Positions 12,569 to 49,544 of a stretch of 64,000 nt of DNA are shown here, piece after piece. Every line of letters starts with the position of its first letter. Position 1 is the stretch's first letter. Made by a program: the position numbers and the translations under genes. Under the pieces are notes generated by a model. The model worked only from the letters and a program-made list of their open reading frames with translations. It was not told the DNA's origin and made no database searches. The DNA is from Chloroflexota bacterium (GTDB lineage Bacteria > Chloroflexota > Dehalococcoidia > Lucifugimonadales > HRBIN23). Location of the stretch: positions 598 to 64,597 of the forward strand of contig JACQUK010000112.1 in the NCBI GenBank assembly GCA_016210325.1, in the 5' to 3' direction.

Positions 12569-12603
12569 GTTCGGCAGGCCCCAGCCAGGGCGAGGGGAGG
12601 TCT

Positions 12604-16458: not shown

Positions 16459-16464
16459 GCTACG

Positions 16465-18940: not shown

Positions 18941-18974
18941 CAAGCTACGCTAGCTTTGCAAAGGGAGGTGTCAT

Positions 18975-19115
18975 ATGGAGGCCTACTGCTTCAAGTGTCG
19001 CCAGAAGCGGGAGATCCGGAACGCCGCCCAGGTGAAGCTGAAGAACGGGCGGCCAGCGATGCAGGGAACGTGCCCCGTCTGTGGCACGAAGGTCTTCCGC
19101 ATCGGCAAGGGGTAA
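18975..19115 (+). CDS. Small zinc-ribbon protein (DUF5679-like), 46 aa; absent from the ORF track
   Basis: ATG follows AAGGGAGG. My hand translation is MEAYCFKCRQKREIRNAAQVKLKNGRPAMQGTCPVCGTKVFRIGKG-stop, with CxxC...CxxC. A terminator follows. Confidence 0.7.
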   Translation: MEAYCFKCRQKREIRNAAQVKLKNGRPAMQGTCPVCGTKVFRIGKG

Positions 19116-19124
19116 GTCCGGATA

Positions 19125-19180
19125 GGAAGCCTCTCTAGCGATTGCCGGGGGATCGTTGCTGGAGAGGCTTCCCATCTTTT
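19125..19180 (+). terminator. Rho-independent terminator
   Basis: 11-bp stem GGAAGCCTCTC (19125-35) / GAGAGGCTTCC (19162-72), followed by CATCTTTT. Confidence 0.6.
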
Positions 19181-19399
19181 AACGACCAACTCGCTCCTAG
19201 TGCTGCCTGTCGTGGCAGAGGGAGGGTCCACGGCGTGCAGCCTGCCCCTATTCCGGCGGCAGGAGACTCCCGGCCGACGGCGTTGGTTGTTGTCCAGGGC
19301 TTGTGCCGTCCGGGCCTCGGCTGCTACAATTGGCGCGGCTTTTGCCAGGGAACGCGGATGCCACGAGCCGTCTGGGCTCTTGGTCAGCAGGAGCATTGC

Positions 19400-20500: not shown

Positions 20501-20620
20501 GCGCCGATGGTCCCGACTGCAGTCGGGATGCCGGTGTGTGCTCTCTGTTTCGTCTCGTGGGTTGCACCAGACTGCGCTTCCCTTAGCAGGGAAGGGCGGC
20601 TGCCCTGGCGCTGAGGCGGG

Positions 20621-35900: not shown

Positions 35901-38900
35901 AGTATCTGGTGCTGCCACGGTCAACGTGCTGGCGGGGCTGTTGAACCAGGTTGTGGTGACACCGGCAGAGGCGACCACGGAAGTCTCTGGCGCAACGGTC
36001 CAGTTCTCGGCGCAGGCCAGGGATGCCTTTGGTAATGCCATCAACCTACCCATTGCCTGGAGCATTGACGAAGCAGACGCTGGTGGGGCCAGCATTGGCC
36101 AGACTGGTCTATTCACGCCGGGGACGGGTGCTCGGCTGCTGACGGTGCGGGCCACGGCTGCTGAGGAGGGCCTGGTGCGGTCGGGCACGGCCCGAGTCAC
36201 GGTGGAACCGGGGGCTCTGAGGCAGGTGGTGGTGACGCCCAACCCGGCTAGTGTACCCACCTTGGGGCAGCAGCAGTTTGGGGCAGTGGGCTTCGACCGC
36301 TTTGGGAACCCGATTGCGGGGCTGGTCTTCGGCTGGGCGGTGGTGAATGGACCGCCCGATGGGTTTATTGACGGGGCGGGGCTGTTCCGCGGCGGCGTCA
36401 CCGCAGGCACTTTTGTGAACACGGTGCAGGCAACGGCCACCTTCAAGGGTGCAACGGTGTCCGGCTTTGCAACTGTGACCATCCTGCCTGGGCCGCTGGC
36501 GCGGGTGGTGGTAACGCCGGCGCAGGCGACGACGGAGGTGGGTGGCGCAGCGGTCCAGTTTGCTGCACGGGCCGAAGACGAGCACGGGAACGCCATCAAC
36601 CTACCCATCTCGTGGAGCATTGACGAGGCCGACCGGGGTGGGGCGGCTGTGGACCACGCTGGTCTGTTCACGCCGGGGACCAAGGCGGGGGCCTTCACCG
36701 TCCGCGCCGCCGCGTCGCAGGGTGGCGTGGAGCGGTCGGGGACGGCGCAGGTCACGGTGGAGCCGGGGCGGTTGGCGCGGGTGGTGGTGAGTCCGGACCC
36801 GGCGGCGGTTGCTCTTCAGGGGCAGCAGCAGTTTGCGGCGGCAGGCTTTGATGCCTTCAACAACGCCATCCCTGGCCTGGTATTTGGCTGGGCGCTGGTA
36901 AACGGGCCGGCGGACGGGTCCTTGAGTGGAGCGGGGCTGTTCCAGGCGGGGACGACGGCGGGGACCTTCGCGGGCACAGTGCAGGCGACGGCCACCTACA
37001 AGGGGGCCACGATTTCTGGGGTGGCGACGGTGACTGTGCTGCCTGGGCCGCTGGCGCGGGTGGTGGTGACGCCGGCGCAGGCGCCGGCAGAGGCTGGTGG
37101 CGCAGCGGTGCAGTTCACGGGGCGGGCTGAAGACGAGTATGGAAACGTTCTGAACCTGCCTATGTCTTGGAGCATTGACGAAGCGGACGCTGGCGGGGCC
37201 GGCATTGACCAGACTGGTCTGTTCACGCCGGGGACGGGCGCCCGAGTGCTGACAGTACGGGCTACGGCGACCCAGGGGAACGTGGTCCAGTCTGGGACGG
37301 CGCAGGTCACGGTGGAGCCCGGGCCACTGGCGCGGGTGGTGGTGAGTCCGGACCCGGCGGTAGTGGCCCTGGAGGGGCAGCAGCAGTTTGCGGCGGCAGG
37401 ATTTGATGCCTTCAACAACCCGATTGCGGGGCTGGCCTTTGGCTGGGCCTTGGTGAACGGGCCGGCGGACGGGTCCTTGAGTGGAACGGGGCTGTTCCAG
37501 GCGGGGACCACCCCGGGGACGTTCGCGGACACGGTGGAGGCGACGGCGACCTACAAGGGTGCCCCGGTGTCCGGGGCAGCCACAGTGATTGTGCCGGTGG
37601 GTGCGCTGGCGCGGGTGATCGTGACGCCGGCAGAGGCCACCACGGAGGTCGGCGGGGCGGCGGTCCAGTTCTCGGCACGAGTAGAAGACGACCTTGGGAA
37701 CGAGGTCCTGGGTGCCTTGGTAGTCTGGAGCATTGATGAGGCAGACCGTGGTGGGGCCCAGATTGACCAGACTGGTCTGTTCACGCCGGGGACGGGCGCT
37801 CGGGCACTGACGGTGCGGGCCACGGCGACCAAGGACAACTTGGCGGGGTCGGGGACGGCGCGGGTGACGGTGGAGCCTGGGCCGCTGGCGCGGGTGGTGG
37901 TGAGTCCGGACCCGGCGGTAGTGGCCCTGGAGGGGCAGCAGCAGTTTGCGGCGGCAGGATTTGACGCCTTCAACAACCCGATTGCGGGACTGGTGTTTGG
38001 CTGGGCGTTGGTGAACGGGCCGGCGGACGGGTCCTTGAGTGGAGCGGGGCTGTTCCAGGCTGGGACGACGGCGGGGACCTTTGCGGACACAGTGCAGGCG
38101 ACGGCGACGTACAAGGGTGCCCAGGTGTCCGGGGATGCCACCGTCACCGTCCTGACGAGTGCTCTAGCACGGGTGGTGGTGACGCCGTCGCAGGCGACGA
38201 CGGAGGTGGGTGGCGCAGCGGTGCAGTTCACGGGGCGGGCTGAAGACGAGCATGGGAACGTTCTGGGTCTGCCTATGTCTTGGAGCATTGACGAGGCCGA
38301 CCGGGGCGGAGCGAGCATAGACCAGACTGGTCTGTTCACGCCGGGGACGGGTGCCCGAGTGCTGACGGTGCGGGCGACGGCAACCCAGAACGGCGTGGAG
38401 CGGTCCGGGACGGCGCAGGTGACGGTGGAGCCTGGGCCGCTGGCACGGGTGGATGTGACGCCGAACCCGGCGGTAGTGGCCCTGGAGGGGCAGCAGCAGT
38501 TTGCGGCGGCAGGATTTGACGCCTTCAACAACCCGATTGCGGGGCTGGCCTTTGGCTGGGCCTTGGTGAACGGGCCGGCGGACGGGTCCTTGAGCGCAGC
38601 GGGGCTGTTCCAGGCGGGCACCACCCCGGGGACGTTCGCGGACACGGTACAGGCGGAGGCGACCTACAAGGGAGCCACGGTGTCCGGGGCTGCGACGGTG
38701 ATTGTGCCGGTGGGTGCGCTGGTGCGGGTGATCGTGACGCCGGCGCAGGCGACGACGGCGGTTGGTGGCGCTACCGTCCAGTTCTCGGGGCGGGCCGAGG
38801 ATGCCTTCGGTAACCTTCTGAACCTGGCCATGACGTGGACAATTGATGAGCCAGACACTGGCGGAGCGAGCATAGACCAGACTGGTCTGTTCACGCCGGG

Positions 38901-41900
38901 GACGGGCGCCCGAGTGCTGACGGTGCGAGCCTCGGTGACCCAGGGTGACGTAAGTCGGTCGGGGACGGCGCGGGCCACGGTGGAGCCGGGGCCGTTGGCG
39001 CAGGTGGTAGTGACGCCGAACCCGGCGACGGTGCCCATCCTTGGACAGCAGCAGTTTGCGGCGGCAGGATTTGATGCCTTCAACAACCCCATCCCTGGCC
39101 TGCCCTTTGGCTGGGACTTGGTGGACGGGCCGGCGGACGGGTCCTTGAGCCCAGCGGGCCTGTTCCAGGCTGGGACAACGGCGGGGACCTTTGTGGACAC
39201 CGTGAGGGCGACGGCGACCTACAAGGGTGCGACGGTCTCAGGTCGTGCGACCGTGAGCATCCCGGTCGGACCGCTGCATCGAGTGGTCGTGACACCGCCC
39301 GAAGGCGTCACACAGGTAGCCGGCGCGGCGGTCCAATTCTCGGCGCAGGTGCAGGATGCCTTCGGCAACGTGCTGGACCTGTCCATGGAGTGGAGCATTG
39401 ATGAGGCAAACACGGGCGGGGCCAGCATTGACCAGACAGGCAGGTTCACGCCAGGGACCAGGGCGGGGACCTTCACCGTGCGGGCCACGGCGGTCCAGGA
39501 CGGCTTGGCCTCTGGTACCGCGCTGGTGATGGTGCGGCCGGGGCCGCTGGCTGCTGTGACGATGTTCATCAACGAGGACCTCAACGGCAACGGCGCTCTG
39601 GACGCTGGCGAAGACTTGAACGGGAACGCTGCTCTGGACACGAGGCTGTCCTTAGACCCGGCTGTTGTGGACATGACTCAACAGGTCCGATTCTTCGCCG
39701 AGTCCACCGATGCCTTTGGCAACGTGAAGACCAACGGAGTGGCTTTGGCGTGGAACCTCACTGATGCCCGCGCCGGCACAGTGGACCAGAGTGGGCGTTT
39801 CGTGGCAGGCCTGGTGGCGGGGGCCTTCCCAGGCGTCGTCAGGGTGGGCGCTACTGAGGGTGCCCTGGGCGTGTCCGATACAAATGGTGTTACCGTGGTG
39901 ACGGCGGTGGTGGCCGTGCTACCGCAGAAGGACGGCTTCCAGGACACCGTCATTGAGGTGCCGGTCACGTTCATCAACGTGCCGGCCCCTGGCCTGGGGT
40001 CCTACCGTATCCGCGTCCGCATCACGGACCGCAACGTAGCCCGGCTGGCTGGCGTAAGCCAGGCAGATGTGCTGGTGCCCGGCGATGCGCCCTTCACGAG
40101 CTTTGGCACGTTCATCGTGCTGGATGACCATACGGTTGACTTCGGTGGCAGCATCCCTGGCCCTGTGGGACCCACCGGGACAGTCCGCGTCGCGTCGGTC
40201 CGTATCAGGATGGCCGGTGCCCCTGGGAGCGGGACCGCTGTGGTAGTGTTCGATGTGATGGCCAACGATGCTCAGGGTGGGGCCACCACTGTCTTGCGGG
40301 CCGACGGGCACCTCACCGTCGCCACGGCGGACTTCGCTGCGGCCCCGGCTCCGGCCAAGGGCCAGGCACCGCTGGATGTGCAGTTGACCGACCATAGCAC
40401 CGGAAACCCCTACGCTTGGGGCTGGAGCATTTACCAGGACAACGGCGATGAGTTGTTCAACGCCGCTTCGGACGTGCTGCTGAAGTGGACGAAGGCGGGT
40501 GATACTTGGGTCGAGGACGCGGCCGGTGTCACCAGTATTCCGGACCAGAACCCCAAGGTGCGCTTCGGGCGTGGCGGTGACTTCCACGTGGCCCTGACGG
40601 TAACGATTGACCCCAGCACCACCACGGTCGTGAAGCCGCTGCTGGTCAGGACGCTGCTGCCGAGCTTCACGCTGGCGCCTAGCCTTGGCACTGCACCGCT
40701 GGGAGTCCAGATTACGGATAGCACCCAGGGCACGGTGAGTGGCTGGGACTACGAGATCTACCGCGAGGCCACCGGCAACAACTCCCTGGACATCGGCGGC
40801 GACACGCTGGTGGCTTGGGGCAAGGTGGACACCGACAGTAATGGCACGCCTGACACATGGGTCGAAGGCGCTGGCGCTGTGACCAGCATCCCGGAGCGGA
40901 ATCCGAGGGTGCGGTTCGACAAGGGCGGCATCTACCACGTTCGGTCGGTGGTGACTGGACCGGCAGGTACTTTTGCCACCACCCATCAGGCGGCGGTCAC
41001 GGTGCTCCGGGCCGACTTCTCGGCGGCGCTAGCCGCTGGGCAGGCTGGCACCGTTGACCCAGCCACGGGTCGCGTCGAGGGGGTCCTGACGCGCGATGAC
41101 CCAGAGTTCGACGTGCAGTTCACCCAGCGGGCCGAGGGGCCAGCAGTGGCCTATGCCTGGGACTTCAATTTGCAGCCCAGTGAGCTGGACGCCGGTGGCA
41201 GCTACATCGGCAGCTTCGATAGCAGTGACCCGAACCCGACCTACCCCTACACCTCGGCGGGCAGCTACACCGTGCTGCTGCGGGTCACGGGTGGTGGGCT
41301 TGATGACAGGGAGATCAAGGCGGGCATTGTCCTGGTGCACCAGGCGCCGTTGGCGGACTTCACCAATGACCCGGCAACACCGCCGCGAGGCCAGGCGCCG
41401 CTGACGGTGCAACTGCAAGACCTGTCCCAGGGCGACAACCCCAGGGCCTTCGACTACGAGGTCCGTCTGGACGATGGCGATGGGGCCCTCGATGCTGCCC
41501 AGGACACGCTGCTCACGTGGAGCAAGGTTGACACCAACAGCGACGGCACTCCTGACACCTGGGTCGAGGACGCCGCGGGCGTTACCAGCATCCCCGACCA
41601 GGACCCCAGGGTCCGGTTCGACCGGGGCGGTGACTTCCACGTGACGCAGATGGTGACCAACGCCTTCGGTGTCGACTCGGTGGTGCGGGCCCTGTTCGTC
41701 CGGGTGCTCAAGATTAACTTCAGTGGCACGGACTTCGAGGACAAGGTGGCGTACGCCCTGCCGGCGAGCCCGCTCCAGCTCATTATCCCCAGCCAGGATG
41801 ATCCGAACACACTGGCCGTCGTTGAGAACCGCGTCCAGTTCGCAGGGGTCATCTCAGGCACGGTCACCAGCGTCGCCTGGGACCTGAACGGCGACGGGGT

Positions 41901-44169
41901 CACTGATAGCGTGGCGCTGAACCCGACGTGGGACTACACGGTTCCGGGTAGGGTCAACGTGTCCCTGACGGTCACTGGGCCCGCCGGCGTCTTCACGGTG
42001 GTAGGGCGCGGCGAGGACTTCAATAACAACGGTGTGTTGGACCCGGGCGAGGACCAGAACGGGGACGGCGTCCTGGACCGGGGCTTCGTTGTGGTGGCCG
42101 CGCAGCCGGTCGCCGACTTCGATACCAGCGAAGACCTGAACGGGAACGGAGTGCTGGATGCCGGCGAGGACGTCAACGGCAATGGCGAGCTGGACGCCGA
42201 GACCGGTCTGGGCAATGTGACCGCGGCACCGCTGGTGGCCCGCCTGCGCGACCTCTCGTCGGGCGACCCCACCCGCTGGGAGTGGCGTATCTACGAGGAT
42301 GTGAACGGCAACGAGGCCTTCGATGAGGGTGTGGACACCCTCCTGACGTGGACCAAGGTGGGCGATACGTGGCAGGAGGACCCGGCGGGCGCCCAGATTA
42401 TCACCGACCGGCACCCCAAGGTGCGCGTCAACCGCGGCGGTGACTTCCACGTGAGCCTGCGCGTCTTCCGCGCCTTCAGTCCGTTAGAATTTGGTTCAGA
42501 GATATTGACGCGCGAGGTCATCATCCGTACCATCAGGGCAAGCTTCACGGCGGACCCGCTGGATGGGCTGGCGCCGCTGAGCGTAGACTTCGATGACACC
42601 TCCTCCGAGGGCAAGATTGACCTGGTCTCCTGGGACTTTGATGTTACAGCAGGGGAGTTGGATGCCCAAGGAAACTACATCGGCGTCTTCGAGACGACGG
42701 GCTCCAATCCTACCCGCATCTACCAGCGGGCTGGGACGAAGACCGTGGTGATGAAGGTGGTCGGCCCTGCCGGCGAGGCCTTCCTGATATTGCATGACTT
42801 GATCACCGTCAGGGAGCAGGCCGTAGCTGGGTTCACGCTGGCTGACGGCTACACGCCGGACGGCGCGGCGCCCCACATGGTGCAGCTCCAGGATGCCTCT
42901 CAGGGCCACCCGTCTCGCTGGGAGTACCGGGTGTACCGCGACAACGGCGACAGCGTGTACCAGAGCGACTTGGACACCGAGCTCAAGTGGACCTATGCCG
43001 ACACCGATGGTGATGGCATAGCGGAGACGTGGGTGTACGACTCCAGCGGACGGCCGGACATCCCTGACCAGGGCCCCAGAATCCGGTTCGACGAGGGCGG
43101 CACGTTCCACATCACGCAGGTGGTGCAGAACAACAACAACACCTCTGACCCCTTCGTGCGGCAGGACTTCATCCATGTGCTGCGGGTCGTCCTGGCCACC
43201 AACCCGGGCTATGACGTCAACCGAGAGATTGTCATTGACCCCCATACCCTGGTGGACTTCGACGCCAGGGCGTCGGAGGGCAACATCATCCAGGTGAGCT
43301 GGGCCTTCGAGAACCGCGACCGCAACGGCAACGGCGTGCTGGACCCGGACGAGCGGGTGTTCACGGAGACCGCGGCGGTGCCGCCGGACGACAACCTGCG
43401 CCGGCAGCACACGTACCACGCCCTGGGCACCTTCTTTGCCACTGTCCGCATCACCGATGGGACCATGGTGGACCGGTTCACGGTGAAGGTGATTGTGGCG
43501 GAGCAGCCAGACGCGGCCTTCGCCATCATCAATCCTCCAGGTGGGACCTGGGGGGCGACGCCAGCAGCCAATGGCGACCCGCTGAGGCTGATGCTCCAGG
43601 ACACGTCCTCAGGCGGCCCGACGCAGCGCCGGTTCACGGTGACCAACCTGGACCTGCCCGAGGGTGATCAGGACAGGGTGCAAGTCCGCGATGCCTCGTT
43701 CGACCAGGGGAACGGCAGGTGGATCGCGGTGTTTGACCTGCCGCGGGGTGGTAGGTACAGCGTGCGCCTGGACGTCAGCAACGCCCGCGGTGTGGACAAT
43801 GCTGCGCTGGCGGACCCGCTGGAGGTCATACGTGCTGCCTTCGAGGCCCTGAACGGTCGTACAGGCGTGACCTCCGATGTAGGCAAGCCGGGGGCGAGCG
43901 GCAATCCGCACGTCCTGGTGGTGAGGGCTGGCGACCGGGTGGACTTCACCTCCAGCACCGTGGCGGAGATGGGGAGCACCATCAACCGGGTGTACTGGTA
44001 CTTTGTGTGGCCGGAGCGGAGCTCCGCCAGGCGCTCCAGCAACGATGACCCGTCATACACCTACGCGGCTGGCGACCTGACGGGCGGCCCGAAGAAGGTC
44101 CGGCTTATTGCAGTGGGCGATGGCGGCTCGACGGATGTGTACATGGTGATCGAGGTGGAGCAGCCATAA
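29929..44169 (+). CDS. Giant secreted multidomain surface protein 1 (4746 aa): signal peptide, PKD, 25 Big_2-type Ig domains, double BNR/Ycf48-like propeller, EF-hand-like loops, cohesin-like module, PKD-like module array
   Basis: Single ORF in the track with a TTG start after GGGAG. Signal peptide LGLLVALSVVGALLLLSRSAQA. The domain motifs are listed in the sub-features. Confidence 0.9.
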   Translation: MLWKVLSAKSQVTLGLLVALSVVGALLLLSRSAQALRLTVDNLPGSVSSGNLLDFDLTAEFEAGDLVPFQEFRLDILGPSPIIARFRFDGTVLVKDPAVVSITSVPTPCFTFGYGYRFAQTPDDNGNGKPPFGIPGAGEDNLHRESFGYGFGFGYGYGYGYSPVPPCSVKFHVVVDTSVGPMEPGDYEVRFSWATGMPNKPTFDAAPGHFTIVGGVLTADFENVPDRGVAPLDVQFTDRSVPVGQITDWAWTFFEDLNGNNVPDPGEVLGLSTLQDPLMHFDQGGDISVRLRVSNGPVTDTVIHINAVRILELADILANGSSAPVTVAAGDTVNFTGITRGAVTAYSWDLDGDGIADSTDASPSHVYTQAGTYDVSLRVLGFDGVLTDTLVKAGFVNVNPGQLTEVVVTPPAATTQVAGAGVQFSAQARDQFGNVFPPGVLPLAWSLDEADTGGAAVDQTGFFAPGTGARVLTVRATATQNGVERSGTARVTVEPGPLDRVDVTPNPAVVPVQGQQQFAAAGFDAFNNPIPGLAFAWELVNGPPDGALDQSGLFTAGTTSGTFNNTVQATATYKGSTRSGAATVIIPAGPLSRVVVTPPAAVTEVAGAQVQFTARAEDELGNPLDLPFFWEIVEADRGGASIDQAGRFTPGTGARVLTVRATATQDGVVRSGTAQVTVEPGPLDQVTVTPDPVSLRINEQRQFAAAGSDAFGNPIPGLAFAWALVNGPPDGSLDQTGLFTAGTTVGTFNNTVRAMATYKGSTKSDAATVTVLPGPLDHVVIDPKVKTLRVRETHLFTAQAFDQANNPIQGLVPQWTGLAGGTVDQNGLFTAGTVAGTFDPAVQVCMTQNGTTKCDTAKVVVQPGPLVQVVVTPDPGETDVLGQIQFSAQGKDQFGNVIQEGLAPFQWSVVGSPVPGTIDGNTGLFTAGQVAGFFLDAIRAQTQGASGGPVAGTADVVIRAGRLTTLDVMPDDAIVPLLGTNQFVAVARDQFGNLFGPELTIVWEILEPDSDTVLQPVEPGNPLLQQFMVGTKAGTVHVRATATKGADVLSDTSTVTIPPDPLDGVVFEPDPLAVSVNQQAQVTGNPVDQYGNVIPGIPVTLFGENLPSDGIFDPATGIFTAGSQMGLFPKAFKGEATEHGWRGALQGAAGLNAVFFTDASTGWAVGNGGLILHTEDGGRSWGVQSSGTTEDLHGVSFANASEGHAVGANGTILTTVDGGERWMPQAPPAGMVDSFFDVFFTDASTGVAVGTNGAIITTQDGGATWQAQQSGVTTTLRGVYLTDSSTGYAVGDNGTFVKTTQGGAEWKPEDLPEGIPADSFFDVFFTDSSTGWVVGANGAIIHTEDGGATWQAQQSGVNGTLRGVHMTDASTGWAVGDNGTVLTTVNGGANWTPEAPPPGVAAESFFDVFFTDASTGWAVGSRITIIARASPWAIQLTAIDLRGADCVNGLICWAVGLKGQALHTTDGGVSFSALNTGTEDDLLAVDFVDAQHGWAVGANGTVLKAIDGGATWQLQASNTAVTLRGVSFVDAQRGWVVGEGGTVLATADGGATWAPQGSGIGSPLNGVYFVDAQKGWVVGDGGVILATANGGNTWTTQVSGTGQALRAVQMVSATKGWAVGASGTILATADGGSNWAAQASGTVAGLNDLFFLDDTTGWAVGTGGTVLHTGDGLAWAAQASGTTADLYAVTGGGLSPAVYLFAFGDSSTALRYGRFAWGYGDLRVLGELARVVVTPAEATTEAGGAAVQFSAQGQDAGGNVLDVPIVWSIDEADAGGSQVDQTGLFTPGTKAGTYTVRATATQDDIVKSGTARATVNPGPLAEVVVTPAEATTEAGGAAVQFSAQAKDAFGNVLGVPLVWSIDEADTGGASVDQNGLFTPGAGARVLTVRAEASQNGIVRSGTAQVRVEPGPLARVDVTPNPVTLRVQGQQQFGAAGFDALNNPIPGLAFTWLLVNGPADGSLSAAGLLHAGTTPGTFTNTVQATATFKGATVSGAATVNVLAGLLNQVVVTPAEATTEVSGATVQFSAQARDAFGNAINLPIAWSIDEADAGGASIGQTGLFTPGTGARLLTVRATAAEEGLVRSGTARVTVEPGALRQVVVTPNPASVPTLGQQQFGAVGFDRFGNPIAGLVFGWAVVNGPPDGFIDGAGLFRGGVTAGTFVNTVQATATFKGATVSGFATVTILPGPLARVVVTPAQATTEVGGAAVQFAARAEDEHGNAINLPISWSIDEADRGGAAVDHAGLFTPGTKAGAFTVRAAASQGGVERSGTAQVTVEPGRLARVVVSPDPAAVALQGQQQFAAAGFDAFNNAIPGLVFGWALVNGPADGSLSGAGLFQAGTTAGTFAGTVQATATYKGATISGVATVTVLPGPLARVVVTPAQAPAEAGGAAVQFTGRAEDEYGNVLNLPMSWSIDEADAGGAGIDQTGLFTPGTGARVLTVRATATQGNVVQSGTAQVTVEPGPLARVVVSPDPAVVALEGQQQFAAAGFDAFNNPIAGLAFGWALVNGPADGSLSGTGLFQAGTTPGTFADTVEATATYKGAPVSGAATVIVPVGALARVIVTPAEATTEVGGAAVQFSARVEDDLGNEVLGALVVWSIDEADRGGAQIDQTGLFTPGTGARALTVRATATKDNLAGSGTARVTVEPGPLARVVVSPDPAVVALEGQQQFAAAGFDAFNNPIAGLVFGWALVNGPADGSLSGAGLFQAGTTAGTFADTVQATATYKGAQVSGDATVTVLTSALARVVVTPSQATTEVGGAAVQFTGRAEDEHGNVLGLPMSWSIDEADRGGASIDQTGLFTPGTGARVLTVRATATQNGVERSGTAQVTVEPGPLARVDVTPNPAVVALEGQQQFAAAGFDAFNNPIAGLAFGWALVNGPADGSLSAAGLFQAGTTPGTFADTVQAEATYKGATVSGAATVIVPVGALVRVIVTPAQATTAVGGATVQFSGRAEDAFGNLLNLAMTWTIDEPDTGGASIDQTGLFTPGTGARVLTVRASVTQGDVSRSGTARATVEPGPLAQVVVTPNPATVPILGQQQFAAAGFDAFNNPIPGLPFGWDLVDGPADGSLSPAGLFQAGTTAGTFVDTVRATATYKGATVSGRATVSIPVGPLHRVVVTPPEGVTQVAGAAVQFSAQVQDAFGNVLDLSMEWSIDEANTGGASIDQTGRFTPGTRAGTFTVRATAVQDGLASGTALVMVRPGPLAAVTMFINEDLNGNGALDAGEDLNGNAALDTRLSLDPAVVDMTQQVRFFAESTDAFGNVKTNGVALAWNLTDARAGTVDQSGRFVAGLVAGAFPGVVRVGATEGALGVSDTNGVTVVTAVVAVLPQKDGFQDTVIEVPVTFINVPAPGLGSYRIRVRITDRNVARLAGVSQADVLVPGDAPFTSFGTFIVLDDHTVDFGGSIPGPVGPTGTVRVASVRIRMAGAPGSGTAVVVFDVMANDAQGGATTVLRADGHLTVATADFAAAPAPAKGQAPLDVQLTDHSTGNPYAWGWSIYQDNGDELFNAASDVLLKWTKAGDTWVEDAAGVTSIPDQNPKVRFGRGGDFHVALTVTIDPSTTTVVKPLLVRTLLPSFTLAPSLGTAPLGVQITDSTQGTVSGWDYEIYREATGNNSLDIGGDTLVAWGKVDTDSNGTPDTWVEGAGAVTSIPERNPRVRFDKGGIYHVRSVVTGPAGTFATTHQAAVTVLRADFSAALAAGQAGTVDPATGRVEGVLTRDDPEFDVQFTQRAEGPAVAYAWDFNLQPSELDAGGSYIGSFDSSDPNPTYPYTSAGSYTVLLRVTGGGLDDREIKAGIVLVHQAPLADFTNDPATPPRGQAPLTVQLQDLSQGDNPRAFDYEVRLDDGDGALDAAQDTLLTWSKVDTNSDGTPDTWVEDAAGVTSIPDQDPRVRFDRGGDFHVTQMVTNAFGVDSVVRALFVRVLKINFSGTDFEDKVAYALPASPLQLIIPSQDDPNTLAVVENRVQFAGVISGTVTSVAWDLNGDGVTDSVALNPTWDYTVPGRVNVSLTVTGPAGVFTVVGRGEDFNNNGVLDPGEDQNGDGVLDRGFVVVAAQPVADFDTSEDLNGNGVLDAGEDVNGNGELDAETGLGNVTAAPLVARLRDLSSGDPTRWEWRIYEDVNGNEAFDEGVDTLLTWTKVGDTWQEDPAGAQIITDRHPKVRVNRGGDFHVSLRVFRAFSPLEFGSEILTREVIIRTIRASFTADPLDGLAPLSVDFDDTSSEGKIDLVSWDFDVTAGELDAQGNYIGVFETTGSNPTRIYQRAGTKTVVMKVVGPAGEAFLILHDLITVREQAVAGFTLADGYTPDGAAPHMVQLQDASQGHPSRWEYRVYRDNGDSVYQSDLDTELKWTYADTDGDGIAETWVYDSSGRPDIPDQGPRIRFDEGGTFHITQVVQNNNNTSDPFVRQDFIHVLRVVLATNPGYDVNREIVIDPHTLVDFDARASEGNIIQVSWAFENRDRNGNGVLDPDERVFTETAAVPPDDNLRRQHTYHALGTFFATVRITDGTMVDRFTVKVIVAEQPDAAFAIINPPGGTWGATPAANGDPLRLMLQDTSSGGPTQRRFTVTNLDLPEGDQDRVQVRDASFDQGNGRWIAVFDLPRGGRYSVRLDVSNARGVDNAALADPLEVIRAAFEALNGRTGVTSDVGKPGASGNPHVLVVRAGDRVDFTSSTVAEMGSTINRVYWYFVWPERSSARRSSNDDPSYTYAAGDLTGGPKKVRLIAVGDGGSTDVYMVIEVEQP
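31130..33340 (+). other. Array I of about 8 Big_2-type bacterial Ig-like domains (protein 1)
   Basis: Repeated V(V/T)VTP.P....V.G...QF.A.A.D.FGN ... G.FTAG...G.......A .. G..SG.A.V.V units. Confidence 0.65.
33355..35070 (+). other. Two consecutive BNR/Ycf48(PSII_BNR)-like beta-propellers, 13-14 blades (protein 1)
   Basis: 13 recurrences of the blade motif, e.g. TEDGGRSWGVQ, QDGGATWQAQQSG, IDGGATWQLQ, ADGGSNWAAQ. Each is followed by L.GV.F.D...GWAVG..GT(I/V)L.T. Confidence 0.7.
35090..39540 (+). repeat. Array II: 16 Big_2-type domains in alternating A/B types, coded by near-identical tandem DNA repeats (A+B pair period about 555-560 nt)
   Basis: Type A is VVVTPA(E/Q)ATTEVGGAAVQF...WSIDEAD.GGA. 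Type B is VVV(S/T)P(D/N)PAVVALEGQQQFAAAGFDAFNNPIAGL.FGWALVNGPADGSLS. Long, almost identical nucleotide blocks occur at about 37321, 37871 and 38431. Confidence 0.85.
39577..39648 (+). other. Paired EF-hand-like Ca-binding loops (DLNGNGALDAGE-DLNGNAALDTRL)
   Basis: The first 12-residue loop fits the canonical EF-hand loop positions 1,3,5,6,8,9,12 (D-x-N-x-N-G-x-L-D-x-x-E). Similar pairs occur at 42016-42087 and about 42127-42200 (protein 1), about 46811-46890 (protein 2), and about 53848-53915 and about 59140-59212 (protein 3). Confidence 0.6.
39905..40320 (+). other. Cohesin-like beta-sandwich module (tentative)
   Basis: VVAVLPQKDGFQDTVIEVPVTFINVPAPGLGSYRIRVRITDRNVARLAGV...GTVRVASVRIRMAGAPGSGTAVVVFDV resembles the cohesin pattern. 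That pattern has a selected element giving V.VPV.., an identity-like I.yD stretch, and a tail G.la.i.f.v. The call is from memory only. Confidence 0.3.
40320..44166 (+). other. Array of PKD-like modules, several carrying a conserved acidic insertion (protein 1 C-terminal third)
   Basis: Recurring ADF...G.APL.VQL.D.S.G.P..W.W.IY.D.NG......D.LL.W.K...(D.DG.PD)TWVEDAAGVTSIPDQ.P.VRF.RGGDFHV. Canonical PKD units (WD.NGDG..DS....P...Y...G.Y.V.L.V) are interspersed. Confidence 0.6.
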
Positions 44170-44205: not shown

Positions 44206-47200
44206 ATGCGCTTTTCGTCGAAGGGAGCAGCCCCTGACTGGCATCTGAAACTCGTGCTGGCGGCCCTCCTGGTAGTGGGAGGGCTGCTGGCCGTTTCAGG
44301 GGCAGTCCTCGCCATCGCTCCGGTGGCTGATTTCATCAACGACCCGGCCACGCCGCGCCTTGGGGCCTTCCCGGCGCAGGGTACGTTCGATGTTAGCCTG
44401 CTGGACACCTCGGACAATGCCCCTACCTCCTGGGACTGGCGTGTCTATCTGGACAATGGCGATGGGGTCCTGAACGACGCCGATGGGGATGGCACGCCGG
44501 ACCCTGGCACTGACACAGCGGTAACGTGGCGCCTGGATGGCGCCAGCTTCGTACAGGACGCAGCGGGGGCCATTACCGTCATCCAGGGCAACACCGATAC
44601 TGAGCGGGACCCGTTCCTGAGCTTCAGCCGCGGTGGCGACTACCACGTGCGGCTGGTGGCCACCGGGGATGGCTCCTCGCCTCCGAAGGTCCAGAACAAC
44701 TTCATCCGCATCCTCCGGACAGCTTTTGCGGCGAACAGCAACGACGCTGGCGCCACGTGCAGCAACGTCTCCACCACCTCGGGCGCCACCTGCGACGGCA
44801 CCTCGGTGCCCTTCACGGTGTCCTTTGTCGGTACGTCAGAGGGGACAATCACCGCCAGGGCCTGGGACTTCAACGGCGACGGTGTCGTGGACTCCAACGT
44901 CCAGGCCCCGGCCCCGTTCGTCTACGCGGAGCCGGGCACCTTCACCGTCACCGAGACAACCAGCGGACCCGCGGGCACCCACACAGCCCGGCTGACCGTC
45001 CGGGTGTTCCAGATCCCCAGCGCCTCCTTTAGCGGGACGCCCAGGTCCGGCGTGGTGAACGCCCAGGGACAGTTCACCGTCAACTTCGTGGACGAGTCCA
45101 CGGGTAACCCTTCCCGCTGGGTCTGGGACTTCGGCGACGGCTCCAGTCTAAATACCCAGGACCCCGCACAGCGAAACCCGTCCCACGTCTACCAGCGCGG
45201 TGGCGTGTTCACGGCCACCCTGACGGTTAGCAACCCCACCCTGCCCAACGGTGACACGGAGGCGAAGGCGGACTATGTCCGCGCCCTCCAGGCGGACTTT
45301 GGCACCCGGCCAGGCGCCGGACAACCTGTGACGTTTGCCGCTATCACCAGGACCATCCCACCGGGCCAAGTCTGCTCTACCGGGCAGGCGGGCGCCGATG
45401 TGATTTTCGTTGACCAGAGCCTGGGGAGGCCGGCTGCGGGGGTCCAGTGGGACTGGGATTTTGGGGATGGCAGTGGACTTATCACCAACGTGGAGGCCCA
45501 GGGGCTGGAGCCGACCCACTGCTACACCAGCAGCGGGACCTTCAATGCCACGCTGAGGCTTTCCACGGGCATTGGCACCCATGCAAAGGCCCGCGCTGGG
45601 CTGGTGACGGTGGCCAAGACCCCGCTGGCGGAGTTCCTGGCAGCGCCCACCAGCGGGGGAGTGCTCACCCGAGTGCTGGCCAACGGCGCCACCGAGGTCA
45701 CCCCGGTCCAGATCGCCCTGGTAGACCAGTCCGCCAACGTGCCAACGGGCTGGTCGTGGCGCATCTACGTAGACGGCAACGCTGACCAGGTGCTGAACGA
45801 CGCCGACGGGGATGGGGTGCCAGATGCGGGTACAGACACGCTGGTGACCTGGCGGCAGGACGGCAACACCTTTGTCCAAGACGTGGCTGGGGCCATCAGC
45901 GCGGTTGCGGGCACCACCGACACCGAGCGCAACCCGGTGCTGAAGTTCAACCGGGGCGGCGGCTATCACGTACGTCTGGTGGCTTCCAACCTGGCAGGCG
46001 CTTCAGCGCCCAGGGTGCGGAACCGGTACATCCGCGTCCTGAGGTCGGACTTTGAGGCCCGCTCTGCGGGAGGGGCCTTTGGAACGGCCCCGCTGACGGT
46101 CAACGTTGGGGCTACGGTTGACTTCCGGATCACCACCGAGGGGACCGTGACCTCCCGGGAGTGGGATGTCAACAACGATGGGATCACGGATGGCACCGGC
46201 ACGGCCCTAAGCTTCCAGTACGGGACCGGCGGGACCTTCACGGTGGTGTTTCGCTCCATCGGCCCGGCTGGCACCAGCCAGATGGTGCGGGAAGGATTTG
46301 TCATTGCTCGTCCCCCGCCAACGGCTGACTTCATGGCCAACCCTCTGACACCGGCGCGGCGCCCCTTTGAAACGGGCTTAATGATTGAGGGCAAGCCTGC
46401 CGTGGGCCTGGTGGATCTCTCCACCGAGGCCCCTGACCGCTGGCAGTGGACGGTCTATGAGGACACCAATAGCAACGGTGTGTTGGACGAGGGCGCGGAT
46501 ACTGTCGTGCGGTGGACGCAGGCGGGGGCCAACTTCACGCAGGACCCTCAGGGCGCCCTTGGCGCCATCGAGGGGACCGACGCCAACGTCTACCAGAACC
46601 CCATCCTGCTGTTCGGCCGCGGCGGCGACTACCACGTGAAGCTGGTGGCCAGTAACGTGGTAGGTGCGTCTCAGCCCAGGCCGCGCCCTCTCTTCGTGCG
46701 CATCATCAAGGCCCAGTTTGCTGCCTTGAGCAACACCGCAGGGGCCCAGTGTCCCGCTGTGGACGGCTCTTGCCGTGGAGGCGTCCCCCTCGTCGTCCGC
46801 TTCATTGCCAACGAGGATGCCAACGGGAACAAACTCCTTGACGCTGGCGAGGACCTGAACGCCAACGGGGCGCTGGATGTGCTGGCGGAGGGCACAGTCA
46901 CCAGCTATGCGTGGGACCTGAACGGTGATGGTCTAACCGACAGCACCGCTGCGAACCCGACCTTCAACTACACGACGCCCAGTAACTTCAATGTTACGTT
47001 GCGAGTGACTGGCCCCGCCGGCAGCAGCACCGTGCTCAAGCAGGCGCTGGTCAGGACCTTCCAGCCGGTCGCGGCGGACCTCTCGGGCACGCCCAGGGCG
47101 GTGGCTTCAGGGAACACCGTGCAGTTCACTGACCTCAGCGTGGGCAACCCCGACACCTGGCAGTGGGCCTTCTTCCAGGACGAGGACGGGGATGGCGTGC

Positions 47201-49326
47201 GGGACGTTGGCGGCGTCGAGATAACCTCTGACCTTCGCAACCCATTGGTGACGTTTACCGCCGGCGGGACCTACAGCGTCGTCCTCTTTGCAGACAACCC
47301 GGTGGACCCCGACGGCAACACTGTCACCCGGCTCGGCTACGTGAATGTGCTCGAGCCCAGCATCGCGGCCTCCCGAGTGAGCGGCGCTCCGCCTCTCCAG
47401 GTGACCTTCACGGACGAATCGAAGCCCGCGGGGGCCATCACGGGGCGGGAGTGGGACTTCGAGTCTGACGGTGTGGTGGACAGCACCGATGCTAGCCCCA
47501 GCTTCACCTTTGCCCAGCAGGGCGATTTCACCGTGAGCTTGCGGGTCGCAGGCTTCGGCGTCTTCGCCACGGCCACCCAGGTCATCCAGGTCAGGACGGC
47601 GGCGCAACCGCCTACTCCGGTGGTGGGTGGGCCGCCTGGCGCGGCACCCGTGTTCCCGGCGTTCACCGGAGGGCCGGCCGTGGATGGGCCTGCGCCACTG
47701 ACCGTCACCTTCGAGGACCAGACTGCTGCGCCCTTCCCCATCGTGGGACGTGAGTGGGACCTGGACGGCGACGGCGTGGTGGACGCCACCTCCAAGACGG
47801 CCACGTTCACTTACACCAAGGTAGGCACGTACACCGTGCGCCTGAAGGTATCCCGGGCCGATGCGCAGTCGGGGACAACCACCAAGGAGGCATTTGTCGT
47901 CGTGAGGCCCGGCCCCCTGGACCGGATTGAGCTTACCCCTGCCAGCACGGCGGTTGCCGTTGGGGGGCGAGCCCAGTTCCAGATAATCGCCCTGGACTTC
48001 TTCGGTAACGTCATTCAGGATGCCACGGTGGCCTGGAGTGCGGGGGCCGGTGGCACCATTGACTCGACGGGCACCTTCACCGCGGGTCAGGAGGCAGGGA
48101 CCTTCACCAGCGCCGTGGTGGCCAGAGTCACCAAGGGTGGCATCGTTAAGGAGGCCTCTGCCACGGTGACGGTCACTGCTGCGCCCAGGGTGACGGTGCA
48201 GGACCGGTTGCCGGTGGGCGCCCAGGCGACCGCCCTGGATGCGGCCGGGCAACCGGTGAGCTTGAGCGGCCAGCCCATGATCGCTACCACTACGCCGCAG
48301 GGGGTCACGGTCATAACCCTGCCGGTGGTCCTGGCGAGCGGGGCGTCCCTGGCTAGCTTTGAGGACCCGGAAAGCGGCATCACCTACAGGGATGGGAAGC
48401 TGACCATCCCTGTTCGCGACGAGACAGGCCAGATTGGGCTGTTCATCGAGGCGCAGGTAGAGGCACCTGTGGGCACGGGCACGGCAGCCGAGGCCCGCGT
48501 CACGCGGCTAGTGTTGCGGACCACGGAACGGACGCTGGACCTGTCGGCGGCGGACCCCGTCCTTGGAGCGGTAGGCGTCGTCATAGGGGCGGAGCTGCTG
48601 CGCTACCCCTCCCAGGGCGAGTTGCGCGTTGGCCTTTCGAAGCAGCCCAGCCCGGAGGGCCGCGTGGCCATGGACCAGGCGGCCCGGGCCGTCGGCCGAC
48701 GAATCGTGGACGTCGCCGTGGCGCTGTCGGTGCGGCAGCAGGACATGGCGAACCAGCAGGTGGTGGGCCAGGTGGAGATAACCATCGCTGTGGGCCAGCG
48801 CTGGTTGGACCAGGTAGGCTCCGGCAATGCGCGCATTCTGCACATCCCTGATGTGGGGCCCGGAGAGGTCCTGGACACGACCCCTGTGGGGACCGATGCC
48901 CAGGGCCGGGCCTTGCTCCGCGGCACCTCGCCGAAAGGACTCTCCGAGTTCGCCCTGGTGGTGTTGCAGCAGGAGGTCGCCACTCCAACGCCAACCCCGA
49001 CGGCGACCCCCGTCCGCACGCCTACTCCTACCCCTACGCCCACCCCAACGGGTGTTGCCCCTACGCCCACGCCCACTCCCACGCCTGGGGTTGGCACTCC
49101 CACTGCTACTCCTACACCCACGCCCACTGGTGTTGGAACTCCCACCGCCACACCCACGGCGACGGTCCCGGCCACGGCGCTCCCGACGGTCAGGCCAACC
49201 GTGACGGCGACGCCAGTGACACCAGGGGCAGGCGGTTTCCCTGTGGTCATCGTGGTTGTGGTGGTCATCGTCGTGGTGATCGCCGCAGTAGGTGCCTTCC
49301 TGTTCCTGCGGCGGCGGGGTGCGTAG
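44206..49326 (+). CDS. Giant surface protein 2 (1706 aa): N-terminal signal/anchor, PKD-like modules, Big_2 domain, pre-PGF-like domain, Pro/Thr linker, C-terminal TM helix and RRR tail
   Basis: Single ORF in the track, 36 nt downstream of gene 1 with no terminator between them. The N-terminus is LKLVLAALLVVGGLLAVSGAVLAIAPVADF. Its modules are paralogous to those of protein 1. Confidence 0.9.
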   Translation: MRFSSKGAAPDWHLKLVLAALLVVGGLLAVSGAVLAIAPVADFINDPATPRLGAFPAQGTFDVSLLDTSDNAPTSWDWRVYLDNGDGVLNDADGDGTPDPGTDTAVTWRLDGASFVQDAAGAITVIQGNTDTERDPFLSFSRGGDYHVRLVATGDGSSPPKVQNNFIRILRTAFAANSNDAGATCSNVSTTSGATCDGTSVPFTVSFVGTSEGTITARAWDFNGDGVVDSNVQAPAPFVYAEPGTFTVTETTSGPAGTHTARLTVRVFQIPSASFSGTPRSGVVNAQGQFTVNFVDESTGNPSRWVWDFGDGSSLNTQDPAQRNPSHVYQRGGVFTATLTVSNPTLPNGDTEAKADYVRALQADFGTRPGAGQPVTFAAITRTIPPGQVCSTGQAGADVIFVDQSLGRPAAGVQWDWDFGDGSGLITNVEAQGLEPTHCYTSSGTFNATLRLSTGIGTHAKARAGLVTVAKTPLAEFLAAPTSGGVLTRVLANGATEVTPVQIALVDQSANVPTGWSWRIYVDGNADQVLNDADGDGVPDAGTDTLVTWRQDGNTFVQDVAGAISAVAGTTDTERNPVLKFNRGGGYHVRLVASNLAGASAPRVRNRYIRVLRSDFEARSAGGAFGTAPLTVNVGATVDFRITTEGTVTSREWDVNNDGITDGTGTALSFQYGTGGTFTVVFRSIGPAGTSQMVREGFVIARPPPTADFMANPLTPARRPFETGLMIEGKPAVGLVDLSTEAPDRWQWTVYEDTNSNGVLDEGADTVVRWTQAGANFTQDPQGALGAIEGTDANVYQNPILLFGRGGDYHVKLVASNVVGASQPRPRPLFVRIIKAQFAALSNTAGAQCPAVDGSCRGGVPLVVRFIANEDANGNKLLDAGEDLNANGALDVLAEGTVTSYAWDLNGDGLTDSTAANPTFNYTTPSNFNVTLRVTGPAGSSTVLKQALVRTFQPVAADLSGTPRAVASGNTVQFTDLSVGNPDTWQWAFFQDEDGDGVRDVGGVEITSDLRNPLVTFTAGGTYSVVLFADNPVDPDGNTVTRLGYVNVLEPSIAASRVSGAPPLQVTFTDESKPAGAITGREWDFESDGVVDSTDASPSFTFAQQGDFTVSLRVAGFGVFATATQVIQVRTAAQPPTPVVGGPPGAAPVFPAFTGGPAVDGPAPLTVTFEDQTAAPFPIVGREWDLDGDGVVDATSKTATFTYTKVGTYTVRLKVSRADAQSGTTTKEAFVVVRPGPLDRIELTPASTAVAVGGRAQFQIIALDFFGNVIQDATVAWSAGAGGTIDSTGTFTAGQEAGTFTSAVVARVTKGGIVKEASATVTVTAAPRVTVQDRLPVGAQATALDAAGQPVSLSGQPMIATTTPQGVTVITLPVVLASGASLASFEDPESGITYRDGKLTIPVRDETGQIGLFIEAQVEAPVGTGTAAEARVTRLVLRTTERTLDLSAADPVLGAVGVVIGAELLRYPSQGELRVGLSKQPSPEGRVAMDQAARAVGRRIVDVAVALSVRQQDMANQQVVGQVEITIAVGQRWLDQVGSGNARILHIPDVGPGEVLDTTPVGTDAQGRALLRGTSPKGLSEFALVVLQQEVATPTPTPTATPVRTPTPTPTPTPTGVAPTPTPTPTPGVGTPTATPTPTPTGVGTPTATPTATVPATALPTVRPTVTATPVTPGAGGFPVVIVVVVVIVVVIAAVGAFLFLRRRGA
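48180..48975 (+). other. Domain resembling the archaeal PGF-pre-PGF domain (tentative)
   Basis: VEITIAVGQRWLDQVGSGNARILHIPDVGPGEVLDTTPVGTDAQGRALLRGTSPKGLSEFALVV. I compare it with the remembered pre-PGF signature F.V.K.W(I/L)......V.L.R......W..L.T......D..Y.Y.A.TPGFS.FAI. Confidence 0.35.
48979..49230 (+). other. Pro/Thr-rich low-complexity linker
   Basis: ATPTPTPTATPVRTPTPTPTPTPTGVAPTPTPTPTPGVGTPTATPTPTPTGVGTPTATPTATVPATALPTVRPTVTATPVTPGA. Confidence 0.9.
49231..49323 (+). other. C-terminal sorting-signal-like tripartite tail (GGF motif, TM helix, RRR)
   Basis: GGFPVVIVVVVVIVVVIAAVGAFLFLRRRGA-stop. Confidence 0.6.
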
Positions 49327-49387: not shown

Positions 49388-49520
49388 ATTGGCGAGCAAT
49401 GGGGCCACATTAGTCGCTAGAATAATCCTCTATGCCGCTTGATAGTACGTGTCAGTTCCGGCTATTGGCGAGTAATGTGGCCTAATTGGTCGCTAGAAGA
49501 TTCCTCTAGTGGGCTTGACA
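49388..49520. repeat. Two 57-nt direct repeats (period 76 nt), each containing an imperfect dyad and ending in a -35-like hexamer
   Basis: R1 is 49388-49444 and R2 is 49464-49520, with 45 of 57 positions identical in my hand alignment. The dyad is GCGAGCAATG-n6-CATTAGTCGC (49392-49417). The ends are TTGATA and TTGACA. Confidence 0.7.
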
Positions 49521-49544
49521 ATTCCCGAAATTGTGGACAATAAT
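49515..49544 (+). promoter_or_regulatory. Candidate sigma-70 promoter of giant gene 3
   Basis: A perfect TTGACA (49515-20), an 18-nt spacer, then AATAAT (49539-44), about 170 nt upstream of ATG 49718. Confidence 0.4.

Follow-up and report, generated by a model that had tools for sequence, protein, structure and literature searches.

A giant, probably membrane-anchored surface protein from a Chloroflexota-like bacterium and its pre-anchor domain, a distant relative of archaeal PGF-pre-PGF

In a 64,000-nucleotide stretch of DNA (the window) we found a gene, that of protein 2, which is best read as encoding a giant surface protein of the type I membrane-anchored class, exported through Sec, that stands on a Pro/Thr-rich stalk and most likely retains its transmembrane (TM) helix; we assign this reading a probability of roughly 0.6. 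Three clustered genes encode giant surface proteins, and of these protein 2 would be the only one with an anchor. Going inward, its C-terminal region consists of a putative Ig-like module, a conserved domain (here called the pre-anchor domain), the stalk, one TM helix and, as stop-transfer cluster, RRR. The 81-residue stalk would, if extended, be long enough to cross the cell wall and may be glycosylated, and the TM helix most likely stays in place as the anchor; its removal in exchange for a lipid, as in the archaeal PGF-CTERM/ArtA system, is improbable. Judged from its sequence, protein 2 appears to be a giant protein, adhesin- or S-layer-like, that is tethered to the membrane. Bacterial type I membrane-anchored surface proteins with Pro/Thr-rich wall-spanning stalks are a known class, and protein 2 resembles them in its predicted signal peptide, repetitive ectodomain, stalk, TM helix and positive-inside end, but next to the membrane it has, unlike them, a structured and conserved domain that Archaea have as well.

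Anatomy and host of protein 2

The open reading frame of protein 2 (44206..49326 on the plus strand, 1706 residues, by ORF reading of the window) showed a strong coding bias (GC3 0.81); a non-coding or artefactual origin was rejected, since this bias and the presence of a syntenic ortholog speak against it. Its parts are listed in Table 1. Several of the PKD domains contain Asp/Gly-rich inserts of ~45 residues that show up as gaps when protein 2 is aligned with ortholog P0001. The module that follows the PKD repeats resembled, by eye, the repeats of ~95 residues that fill protein 1; its Ig-like fold can only be proposed, because the module has no Pfam match.

Table 1. Position of the features of protein 2 within the window
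Feature	Position	Strand	Basis
Predicted Sec-type signal peptide or signal anchor, N-terminal, MRFSSKGAAPDWHLKLVLAALLVVGGLLAVSGAVLAIA	44206..44319	+	sequence reading
PKD-repeat ectodomain, 9–10 stretches	44320..47904	+	Pfam PKD_4 (4e-59) and PKD (3e-53)
Putative Ig-like beta-sandwich module, aa 1234–1326	47905..48183	+	alignment with the equivalent part of P0001
Pre-anchor (membrane-proximal) domain, 264 aa	48184..48975	+	335 clusters; AF2 model; TIGR04213 via relatives
Pro/Thr-rich linker/stalk, 81 aa, 69% P+T	48979..49221	+	composition count
Gly-rich junction PGAGGFP, outer end of TM helix	49222..49242	+	sequence reading
Single TM helix, VVIVVVVVIVVVIAAVGAFLFL, 22 aa	49243..49308	+	hydrophobicity
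Cytoplasmic basic cluster RRRGA and stop codon	49309..49326	+	sequence reading

A first-pass annotation of this DNA had described a C-terminus of three parts (a pre-anchor domain, a P/T-rich linker and a TM-RRR tail), and the sequences it quoted were recovered exactly. Its start at 48180 misses the reading frame by one base (48181 is in frame), and its linker length of 84 residues became 81 upon counting (A1592–T1672); the richness in Pro and Thr was borne out, with 32 Thr and 24 Pro in the linker (69% versus 17% elsewhere in the protein). At the DNA level the linker includes short imperfect repeats of 6 and 12 nucleotides. The pre-anchor region has its terminal ...GLSEFALVV at residue 1586 and the domain its last residue at 1590; the linker and the TM helix follow.

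The host is a Chloroflexota-like bacterium. The best homolog of protein 2 (MBI2871636.1) is from a Chloroflexi bacterium, as are all three best-match clusters for which the source names an organism. The whole three-gene cluster is conserved in a groundwater Chloroflexi MAG (JACPQL010000005.1), where the ortholog, 36% identical to protein 2, shows the same order of domain, PT linker (80 residues), Gly-rich stretch, TM helix and RRR. The layout of protein 2 is therefore not a product of chance. A related-locus search with a 2-sequence alignment returned a single genome locus and no metagenome locus. The composition of the window is uniform, and the GC content and skew of the region encoding the C-terminus match the rest.

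The pre-anchor domain and its relatives

With full HMMER the pre-anchor domain was found in 335 representative clusters (50% identity clusters, E<=1e-3), and phmmer connected protein 2 to its relatives with E-values down to 3e-45. The domain is a real family, sizeable, essentially unannotated and newly defined here: no Pfam family covers it, and its Chloroflexi members carry NCBI names like 'PKD domain-containing' or 'hypothetical'. The AlphaFold (AF2) model of the domain had a pLDDT of 97.6 and a pTM of 0.91. Foldseek returned no meaningful match in the PDB for the whole domain (TM <= 0.22) and only generic beta-sandwich matches for its C-terminal half (TM ~0.4, E >= 0.07), and searches of the PDB by sequence and by profile gave nothing. 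A word-indexed homolog search yielded no homologs with the domain alone and two archaeal proteins only with the 41-sequence domain profile. A TM segment lies downstream of the domain in 117 of the 141 representative homologs that contain its end (83%), and 82 of these 117 proteins end within 12 residues past that segment.

The first-pass annotation had likened the C-terminus to that of archaeal surface proteins with a PGF-pre-PGF domain, a Thr-rich stretch and a PGF-CTERM tail, and had proposed a check with the corresponding TIGRFAM models, neither of which matched protein 2. TIGR04213 (PGF-pre-PGF) gave no hit at E<=10 with the whole protein or its last 381 residues and none at E<=1 with the isolated domain. 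The connection ran through the relatives: 24 of the 41 aligned ones matched TIGR04213 at E<=1 (best E 4.7e-6), all below the curated cutoff of 28 bits (13–23 bits for the best), and no other family was matched by more than two of the 41. These matches covered profile positions ~51–153 and always lay at the C-terminal end of the pre-anchor domain. By way of these relatives, the C-terminal ~110 residues of the domain are homologous to the archaeal PGF-pre-PGF domain, and the pre-anchor domain is a divergent bacterial relative of it, at the level of a superfamily and by homology, not by convergence. The order of the parts and the kinship of the domain, as proposed before, were thus upheld, but not the PGF-CTERM tail.

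The archaeal system (TIGR04213 with TIGR04126) is processed by archaeosortase A. Protein 2 shares with the archaeal proteins the domain just upstream of the anchor, the Thr/Pro-rich linker that separates the two, a short motif, a TM helix and an Arg cluster. It differs from them in the length of the domain (~264 residues versus 153 positions in the TIGR04213 model), in its tail, which is not a PGF-CTERM, in that no archaeosortase was seen in the window, and in its host; PGF-pre-PGF is described as a family of archaeal hosts, whereas Chloroflexi MAGs are the source of both the closest homologs of protein 2 and the syntenic locus. Of the two papers found to mention PGF-pre-PGF, neither links it to Chloroflexi. 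The family defined here forms a bridge between surface proteins of Chloroflexota and those of Archaea that carry PGF-CTERM.

The relatives carry various anchors behind the same domain. One clade is archaeal and has true PGF-CTERM tails, some of them on archaeal contigs; P0088 (29.2 bits versus a cutoff of 24.5) served as a positive control for TIGR04126. Other relatives end in a LAETG motif, a TM helix and RR (P0002), in a GGGCS-type tail (P0081, MYXO-CTERM at 18.2 versus a cutoff of 20 bits), or in tails of the types 'PTPGD…YYLRQS', 'N-W' and Gly-rich/FP. The pre-anchor domain therefore precedes many different anchors. In this respect it resembles the 'choice-of-anchor' families of NCBIfam, domains whose C-terminal sorting signal changes from lineage to lineage (compare criterion 8 in 10.1101/2023.06.07.544157), but protein 2 was matched by none of the curated models, and in many members of the pre-anchor family the anchor seems to be a plain TM helix that continues into the cytoplasm. 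Linkers equivalent to that of protein 2 were found in P0001, P0050 and P0054, and the RRRGA ending also in P0054 and P0071. Four relatives (P0006, P0144, P0113 and P0097) have a tail in the style of protein 2 yet continue for 50–99 residues beyond the TM helix, which fits a true transmembrane anchor.

The tail and the known sorting signals

Protein 2 ends in PGAGGFPVVIVVVVVIVVVIAAVGAFLFLRRRGA, followed by the stop codon. With a mean Kyte-Doolittle value of 3.7 over 17 residues, its TM helix gives it the highest C-terminal hydrophobicity of any gene in the window; five residues follow the helix. PGF-CTERM signals likewise close with a TM helix and a basic cluster, but the residues of the junction stand in the order P-G-A-G-G-F-P, giving G-F-P where a PGF-CTERM has Pro-Gly-Phe. 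The earlier remark that the motif is not a clean PGF was to the point, since the junction of the ortholog (GGGGVSP) even lacks the Phe of 'GGF'. TIGR04126 (PGF-CTERM, cutoff 24.5 bits) found nothing at E<=10 in the 381-residue region or the 50-residue tail of protein 2, and processing as an ArtA-dependent PGF-CTERM was rejected on this null result, the order of the motif and the ortholog without Phe.

The comparison with other signals led to the same outcome. None of the curated CTERM models reached its cutoff with the tail of protein 2 or with 19 related tails scored alone, and 30 tails of relatives scored alone gave only sub-threshold or TM-driven matches (Loki-CTERM, GVDTG_CTERM, GG_III-CTERM and, marginally, LPXTG_anchor). 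Rhombosortase systems are known from Proteobacteria. Like the GlyGly-CTERM/rhombosortase and MYXO-CTERM/myxosortase signals (PMC6219818, PMC11980579), protein 2 has a Gly-rich junction directly before the TM helix and the Arg cluster; its tail has no Cys, and TIGR03901 was not reported for it. Nor was TIGR03501 at E<=10, despite the Gly-Gly pair, and GlyGly-CTERM was rejected. The tail of protein 2 matches none of the known sorting signals.

A start of the type 'small-small-F-P' opens the C-terminal TM helix in 12 of the 150 representative relatives, in the context of both PT linkers and CARDB. Among 14 aligned tails of the same style only the Pro was invariant and Phe was present in about 70–80%, and even this figure is generous because the 14 tails had been chosen for the motif. 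A homolog search with a tail profile returned short unrelated peptides only. In the window, where the C-terminus of protein 3 runs past the last position (64000), the tail is present on protein 2 only, and in four further loci (L001, L003, L004 and L005) on the pre-anchor-domain protein only; the neighbouring giant secreted proteins in these five loci do not have it.

Alternative readings of the anchor

Three readings that borrow a known mechanism were weighed. That the tail is a degenerate PGF-CTERM, which a homolog of archaeosortase A encoded elsewhere in the genome uses for lipid anchoring, would agree with the kinship of the upstream domain to PGF-pre-PGF, with the archaeal relatives that have PGF-CTERM and with the G-F beside a Pro; we nevertheless consider it highly improbable, given the silence of TIGR04126, the order G-F-P, the missing Phe in the ortholog, the bacterial host and the fact that the PGF-tailed members form a clade of their own. 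The search for a sorting enzyme that the first-pass annotation had called for was negative within the 64-kb window, none of the other ORFs encoding an archaeosortase, exosortase, sortase or rhomboid. Covalent linkage to the cell wall by a sortase is just as improbable: P0002 does end in LAETG, TM helix and RR, and some related tails brush the cutoff of LPXTG_anchor through their TM and basic parts, but the sequence of protein 2 shows nothing like LPXTG, LAXTG or GVDTG; its tail gave no TIGR01167 match and, with GVDTG_CTERM, a score of 10.2 bits where 29 are required. A recent horizontal transfer of the C-terminal module from an archaeon, also suggested in the first-pass annotation, is very unlikely, because the composition is uniform, the synteny with the Chloroflexi MAG is conserved (with the same module in the ortholog) and the archaeal clade is separate. 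The family does span Archaea and Bacteria, but its PGF-tailed members from Archaea stand farthest from protein 2 (27–32% identity), a rough tree sets them apart without placing the Chloroflexota sequences inside the archaeal clade, and the three best organism-named clusters are all Chloroflexi.

A more serious alternative, which we still regard as unlikely, is that the Gly-rich/'GFP'–TM–RRR tail is an undescribed sorting signal of Chloroflexota, cut at the Gly-rich junction by an intramembrane enzyme (rhomboid-, CPBP-, sortase- or exosortase-like), after which the protein would be re-anchored or released. Criteria for generic tripartite C-terminal sorting signals have been formulated by Haft (10.1101/2023.06.07.544157, section 5), and one of them, different or no sorting signal in homologs, describes what we saw in the relatives, with PGF-CTERM, LAETG, MYXO-like Cys tails and other classes. 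In favour of a signal, the tail has three parts and sits at the very end of the protein, its F-P start recurs with both PT linkers and CARDB, tail-style members included in the rough tree span at least three branches, genuine signals occupy the same position in homologs, and no existing NCBIfam CTERM model covers the tail. On the other hand, a single residue is invariant, the Phe is missing from the closest ortholog, several members extend far into the cytoplasm past the TM helix, proteins without the pre-anchor domain do not have the tail in the five loci, the tail-profile search gave nothing useful, and no candidate gene for a processing enzyme was found in the window or the neighbouring loci examined. 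The stronger version, in which the tail of protein 2 and at least 12 related clusters is a new, Chloroflexota-specific signal and the pre-anchor domain an ancient shared presenting module, is rather doubtful.

Three observations speak against a plain anchor in their own right, namely that homologs in other lineages have real sorting signals at the position of the tail, that 'small-small-F-P' recurs among the relatives and across branches of the rough tree, and that the tail itself combines the classical tripartite shape with an end so close to the TM helix. A stalk with a simple TM anchor remained the best fit among the three readings offered by the first-pass annotation, without the word convergent that had been attached to it, the domain being homologous to the archaeal one.

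Read as a stalked protein with a retained TM anchor, protein 2 provides no evidence for archaeosortase-type processing in bacteria. If the tail were a new signal after all, a pre-anchor module common to Archaea and monoderm Bacteria would present surface proteins to the sorting machinery of each lineage. The pre-anchor domain can serve to track down cell-surface proteins and novel anchoring signals in monoderm bacteria that have been little studied, because it almost always adjoins a membrane anchor, whatever the type of that anchor.

Architecture of protein 2

The best description of protein 2 is that of a giant surface protein tethered to the membrane. Its gene, with a strong bias at third codon positions (GC 0.81), is the second of three consecutive giant surface-protein genes on one strand, and among the three products only protein 2 has a membrane anchor. 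The N-terminus looks, by inspection only, like a Sec signal peptide. The structured region ends at aa 1586 (last residues ...GLSEFALVV) and is followed by a Pro/Thr linker with 32 Thr and 24 Pro (69% P+T vs 17% in the rest of the protein) and by the C-terminal end PGAGGFP-VVIVVVVVIVVVIAAVGAFLFL-RRRGA. Every sequence quoted in the first-pass annotation was found in the translation and the region it singled out was recovered, except that its start coordinate was off by one base (48181 is in frame).

Inserts rich in Asp, Gly and Asn, about 25–45 aa long (e.g. DNGDGVLNDADGDGTPDPGTD), occur in several PKD-type modules; they look like calcium-binding loops and are missing from the ortholog P0001. 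A weak Dockerin_1 match (E 0.002) at aa 1075–1096 falls on a segment resembling these inserts.

Features of protein 2 and of the giant genes beside it
Feature	Nucleotides	Strand	Residues	Length	Basis or content
Protein 1	29929..44169			4746 aa	Ycf48/BNR-like + PKD domains
Protein 2 ORF	44206..49326	+		1706 aa	
PKD repeats of protein 2			~40–1230		Pfam PKD_4 4e-59
Asp/Gly/Asn-rich insert	44446..44580		~81–125		
Asp/Gly/Asn-rich insert	45763..45900		~520–565		
Asp/Gly/Asn-rich insert	46459..46575		~752–790		
Asp/Gly/Asn-rich insert	46813..46884		~870–893		
Pre-anchor domain of protein 2			1327–1590	264 aa	
Pro/Thr linker of protein 2			A1592 to T1672	81 aa	composition count
Protein 3	49718..>64000			>4761 aa	PKD, beta-helix/NosD, NHL domains

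The pre-anchor domain and its relation to PGF-pre-PGF

A full HMMER search with the pre-anchor domain against 1.84 billion representative proteins yielded 335 clusters at E<=1e-3, of which 165 pass E<=1e-10 and 21 pass E<=1e-30, and nearly every match spanned all 264 aa. Of the 141 listed representatives whose sequence includes the domain end, a TM segment lies downstream in 117; 82 of these 117 proteins stop within 12 residues past that segment, and at least two basic residues directly follow the segment in 102 of the representatives, which identifies the domain as a membrane-proximal module. AlphaFold2, given an alignment of 41 family members, modelled it with very high confidence (pLDDT 97.6, pTM 0.91) as two helices in an otherwise mostly beta fold. 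Foldseek found no similar solved structure in the PDB for the whole model (TM <= 0.22) and only generic Ig/FnIII-like sandwiches for its C-terminal half (TM ~0.4); neither sequence nor profile searches of the PDB gave a match, and no Pfam family covers the domain in any of the 41 members.

When these 41 members were scanned singly against NCBIfam (E<=1), 24 matched TIGR04213 (PGF_pre_PGF; best 4.7e-6) and no other family was matched by more than two. The scores, 13–23 bits, all lie below the 28-bit cutoff, and it is always the last ~100 aa of the domain that align, to profile positions ~51–153. PGF-type tails were found on six representatives (P0038, P0039, P0063, P0082, P0088 and P0148), with P0088 above the PGF_CTERM cutoff (29.2 vs 24.5 bits), and the contig of P0151, a close relative of P0148, is archaeal, since it carries genes for exosome subunits and RNA polymerase subunit L. 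The pre-anchor domain is thus a distant relative of PGF-pre-PGF, and the PGF-pre-PGF link suggested in the first-pass annotation was a good lead.

By the curated TIGR04213 definition, however, protein 2 itself is not a member. NCBIfam scans of full-length protein 2 and of its C-terminal 381 aa (E<=10), and of the 50-aa tail alone, gave no match to TIGR04213 or PGF_CTERM (TIGR04126), nor to LPXTG, GlyGly-CTERM, MYXO-CTERM, PEP-CTERM or other curated C-terminal sorting models; this lack of a significant match speaks, at face value, against an archaeal PGF-CTERM-like C-terminus. The top match of the tail was Loki-CTERM (E 0.11, 12.9 bits vs cutoff 19.9), and Pfam gave no match on the last 381 aa.

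Tail classes and the nature of the anchor

The tails of 150 representatives of the family fall into several classes: true PGF-CTERM, tails starting with 'N-W-x-L-I' (near GG_III-CTERM, 17.3 vs 22 bits), 'K-P-A-P-L-x-V-T-I-P-L', 'PTPGD[VI]APGSGLL…YYLRQS', GGGCS (just below the MYXO-CTERM cutoff), the LAETG-containing tail of P0002, and tails like that of protein 2 (a Gly/Ala-rich stretch, then F-P, a helix rich in Val and Ile, G-x-x-[YF]-[FL] and RR[RK]). In this last class the C-terminal TM helix opens with F-P in 12 of the 150 clusters. In a rough neighbour-joining tree without support values the PGF-tailed members form one clade and tails of the protein 2 class occur at at least three places.

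We also found that in P0002, the second-best homolog, P-L-A-E-T-G-G comes after the domain, ahead of a TM helix and RR; its LAETG is, on sequence, a sortase-type LAXTG motif, reported by no NCBIfam model. The tail 'L-P-P-T-P-G-D-[VI]-A-P-[GS]-S-G-L-L…G-[GS]-Y-Y-L-R-Q-S' is well conserved in at least five clusters (P0008, P0090, P0117, P0130 and P0031), one of the clusters with this tail coming from a Chloroflexi MAG (MBI4282606.1), and none of the NCBIfam CTERM models matches it. As a candidate for a sorting signal not yet described, it ranks above the protein 2 tail.

Haft and colleagues list eight attributes of sorting signals (10.1101/2023.06.07.544157, section 5). The C-terminal location, TM helix and basic cluster of the protein 2 tail, together with an N-terminal signal peptide (by eye) and homologs bearing other signals, agree with an undescribed Chloroflexota sorting signal. 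Against it, three near-invariant signature residues were not found, Pro alone being invariant in an alignment already selected for the motif, and the syntenic ortholog, in locus L001, reads GGGGVSP at the tail junction, without the Phe. Across the window and loci L001, L003, L004 and L005 the tail is limited to the pre-anchor-domain protein and is absent from the neighbouring giant secreted proteins; this small sample gave no instance of two further attributes, several occurrences per genome and occurrence on unrelated proteins. Moreover, in several relatives with a tail of this style 50–99 residues follow the helix, which fits a true transmembrane anchor and not a cleaved signal. Because the attributes are only partly present, the tail is limited in these loci to pre-anchor-domain proteins and such extensions occur, we favour a retained type I anchor on a Pro/Thr stalk (probability about 0.6) and consider a sorting signal unlikely. 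ArtA-type processing is very improbable, as the tail has no PGF_CTERM match, and attachment by sortase linkage is similarly improbable; no sortase-like enzyme was found among the genes in the first 29 kb of the window, which are housekeeping genes.

Gene order and origin

The best homolog of protein 2 is P0001 (MBI2871636.1, 'PKD domain-containing protein [Chloroflexi bacterium]'; 36% identity over the full length), and P0050 and P0008 also come from Chloroflexi MAGs. The single genome locus retrieved, L001 (JACPQL010000005.1, a groundwater Chloroflexi MAG), shares with the window, over its positions 1..21053, the order of an anchorless giant (in L001 a BNR-repeat protein), the anchored protein 2 or its ortholog, and another giant. 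These Chloroflexi homologs, the shared gene order and the uniform GC content and GC skew across the region make a recent transfer of the C-terminal module from archaea, one of the origins suggested in the first-pass annotation, highly unlikely.

Within protein 1 the GC skew rises to 0.13–0.21 (34001..40000), probably a codon and composition effect of repeats, since it coincides with a long series of repeat pairs, ~190 aa in size and near-identical. Between the protein 2 stop codon and the protein 3 start, a gap of 390 nt holds a near-consensus sigma-70-like promoter match (49515..49544; TTGACA, 18-nt spacer, AATAAT; 11/12), and no terminator-like hairpin was found after protein 2. In L003 (4603..11800) and L005 (2847..13441) the anchored proteins P0050 and P0157, which share an N-terminal 'H.F[YF]GDVT[VI]GG' domain, lie directly downstream of unanchored giant secreted proteins (1727 and 2316 aa) with a common C-terminal motif, GWNL…G.GYW.F…G[ST]I[AT]P; each unanchored giant and its anchored neighbour may be conserved partners, as cargo and membrane tether respectively. 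In L004 (2435..3549) the giant gene of which P0162 is the C-terminal piece looks broken into several ORFs, and among these sits a transposase pair of IS type (HTH_23 with DDE_3).

The C-terminal layout was thus confirmed as observed and its archaeal interpretation partly supported. The main interest lies in the domain family, a structured, unannotated, membrane-proximal module that is common to Archaea and Chloroflexota and stands ahead of many kinds of anchor.
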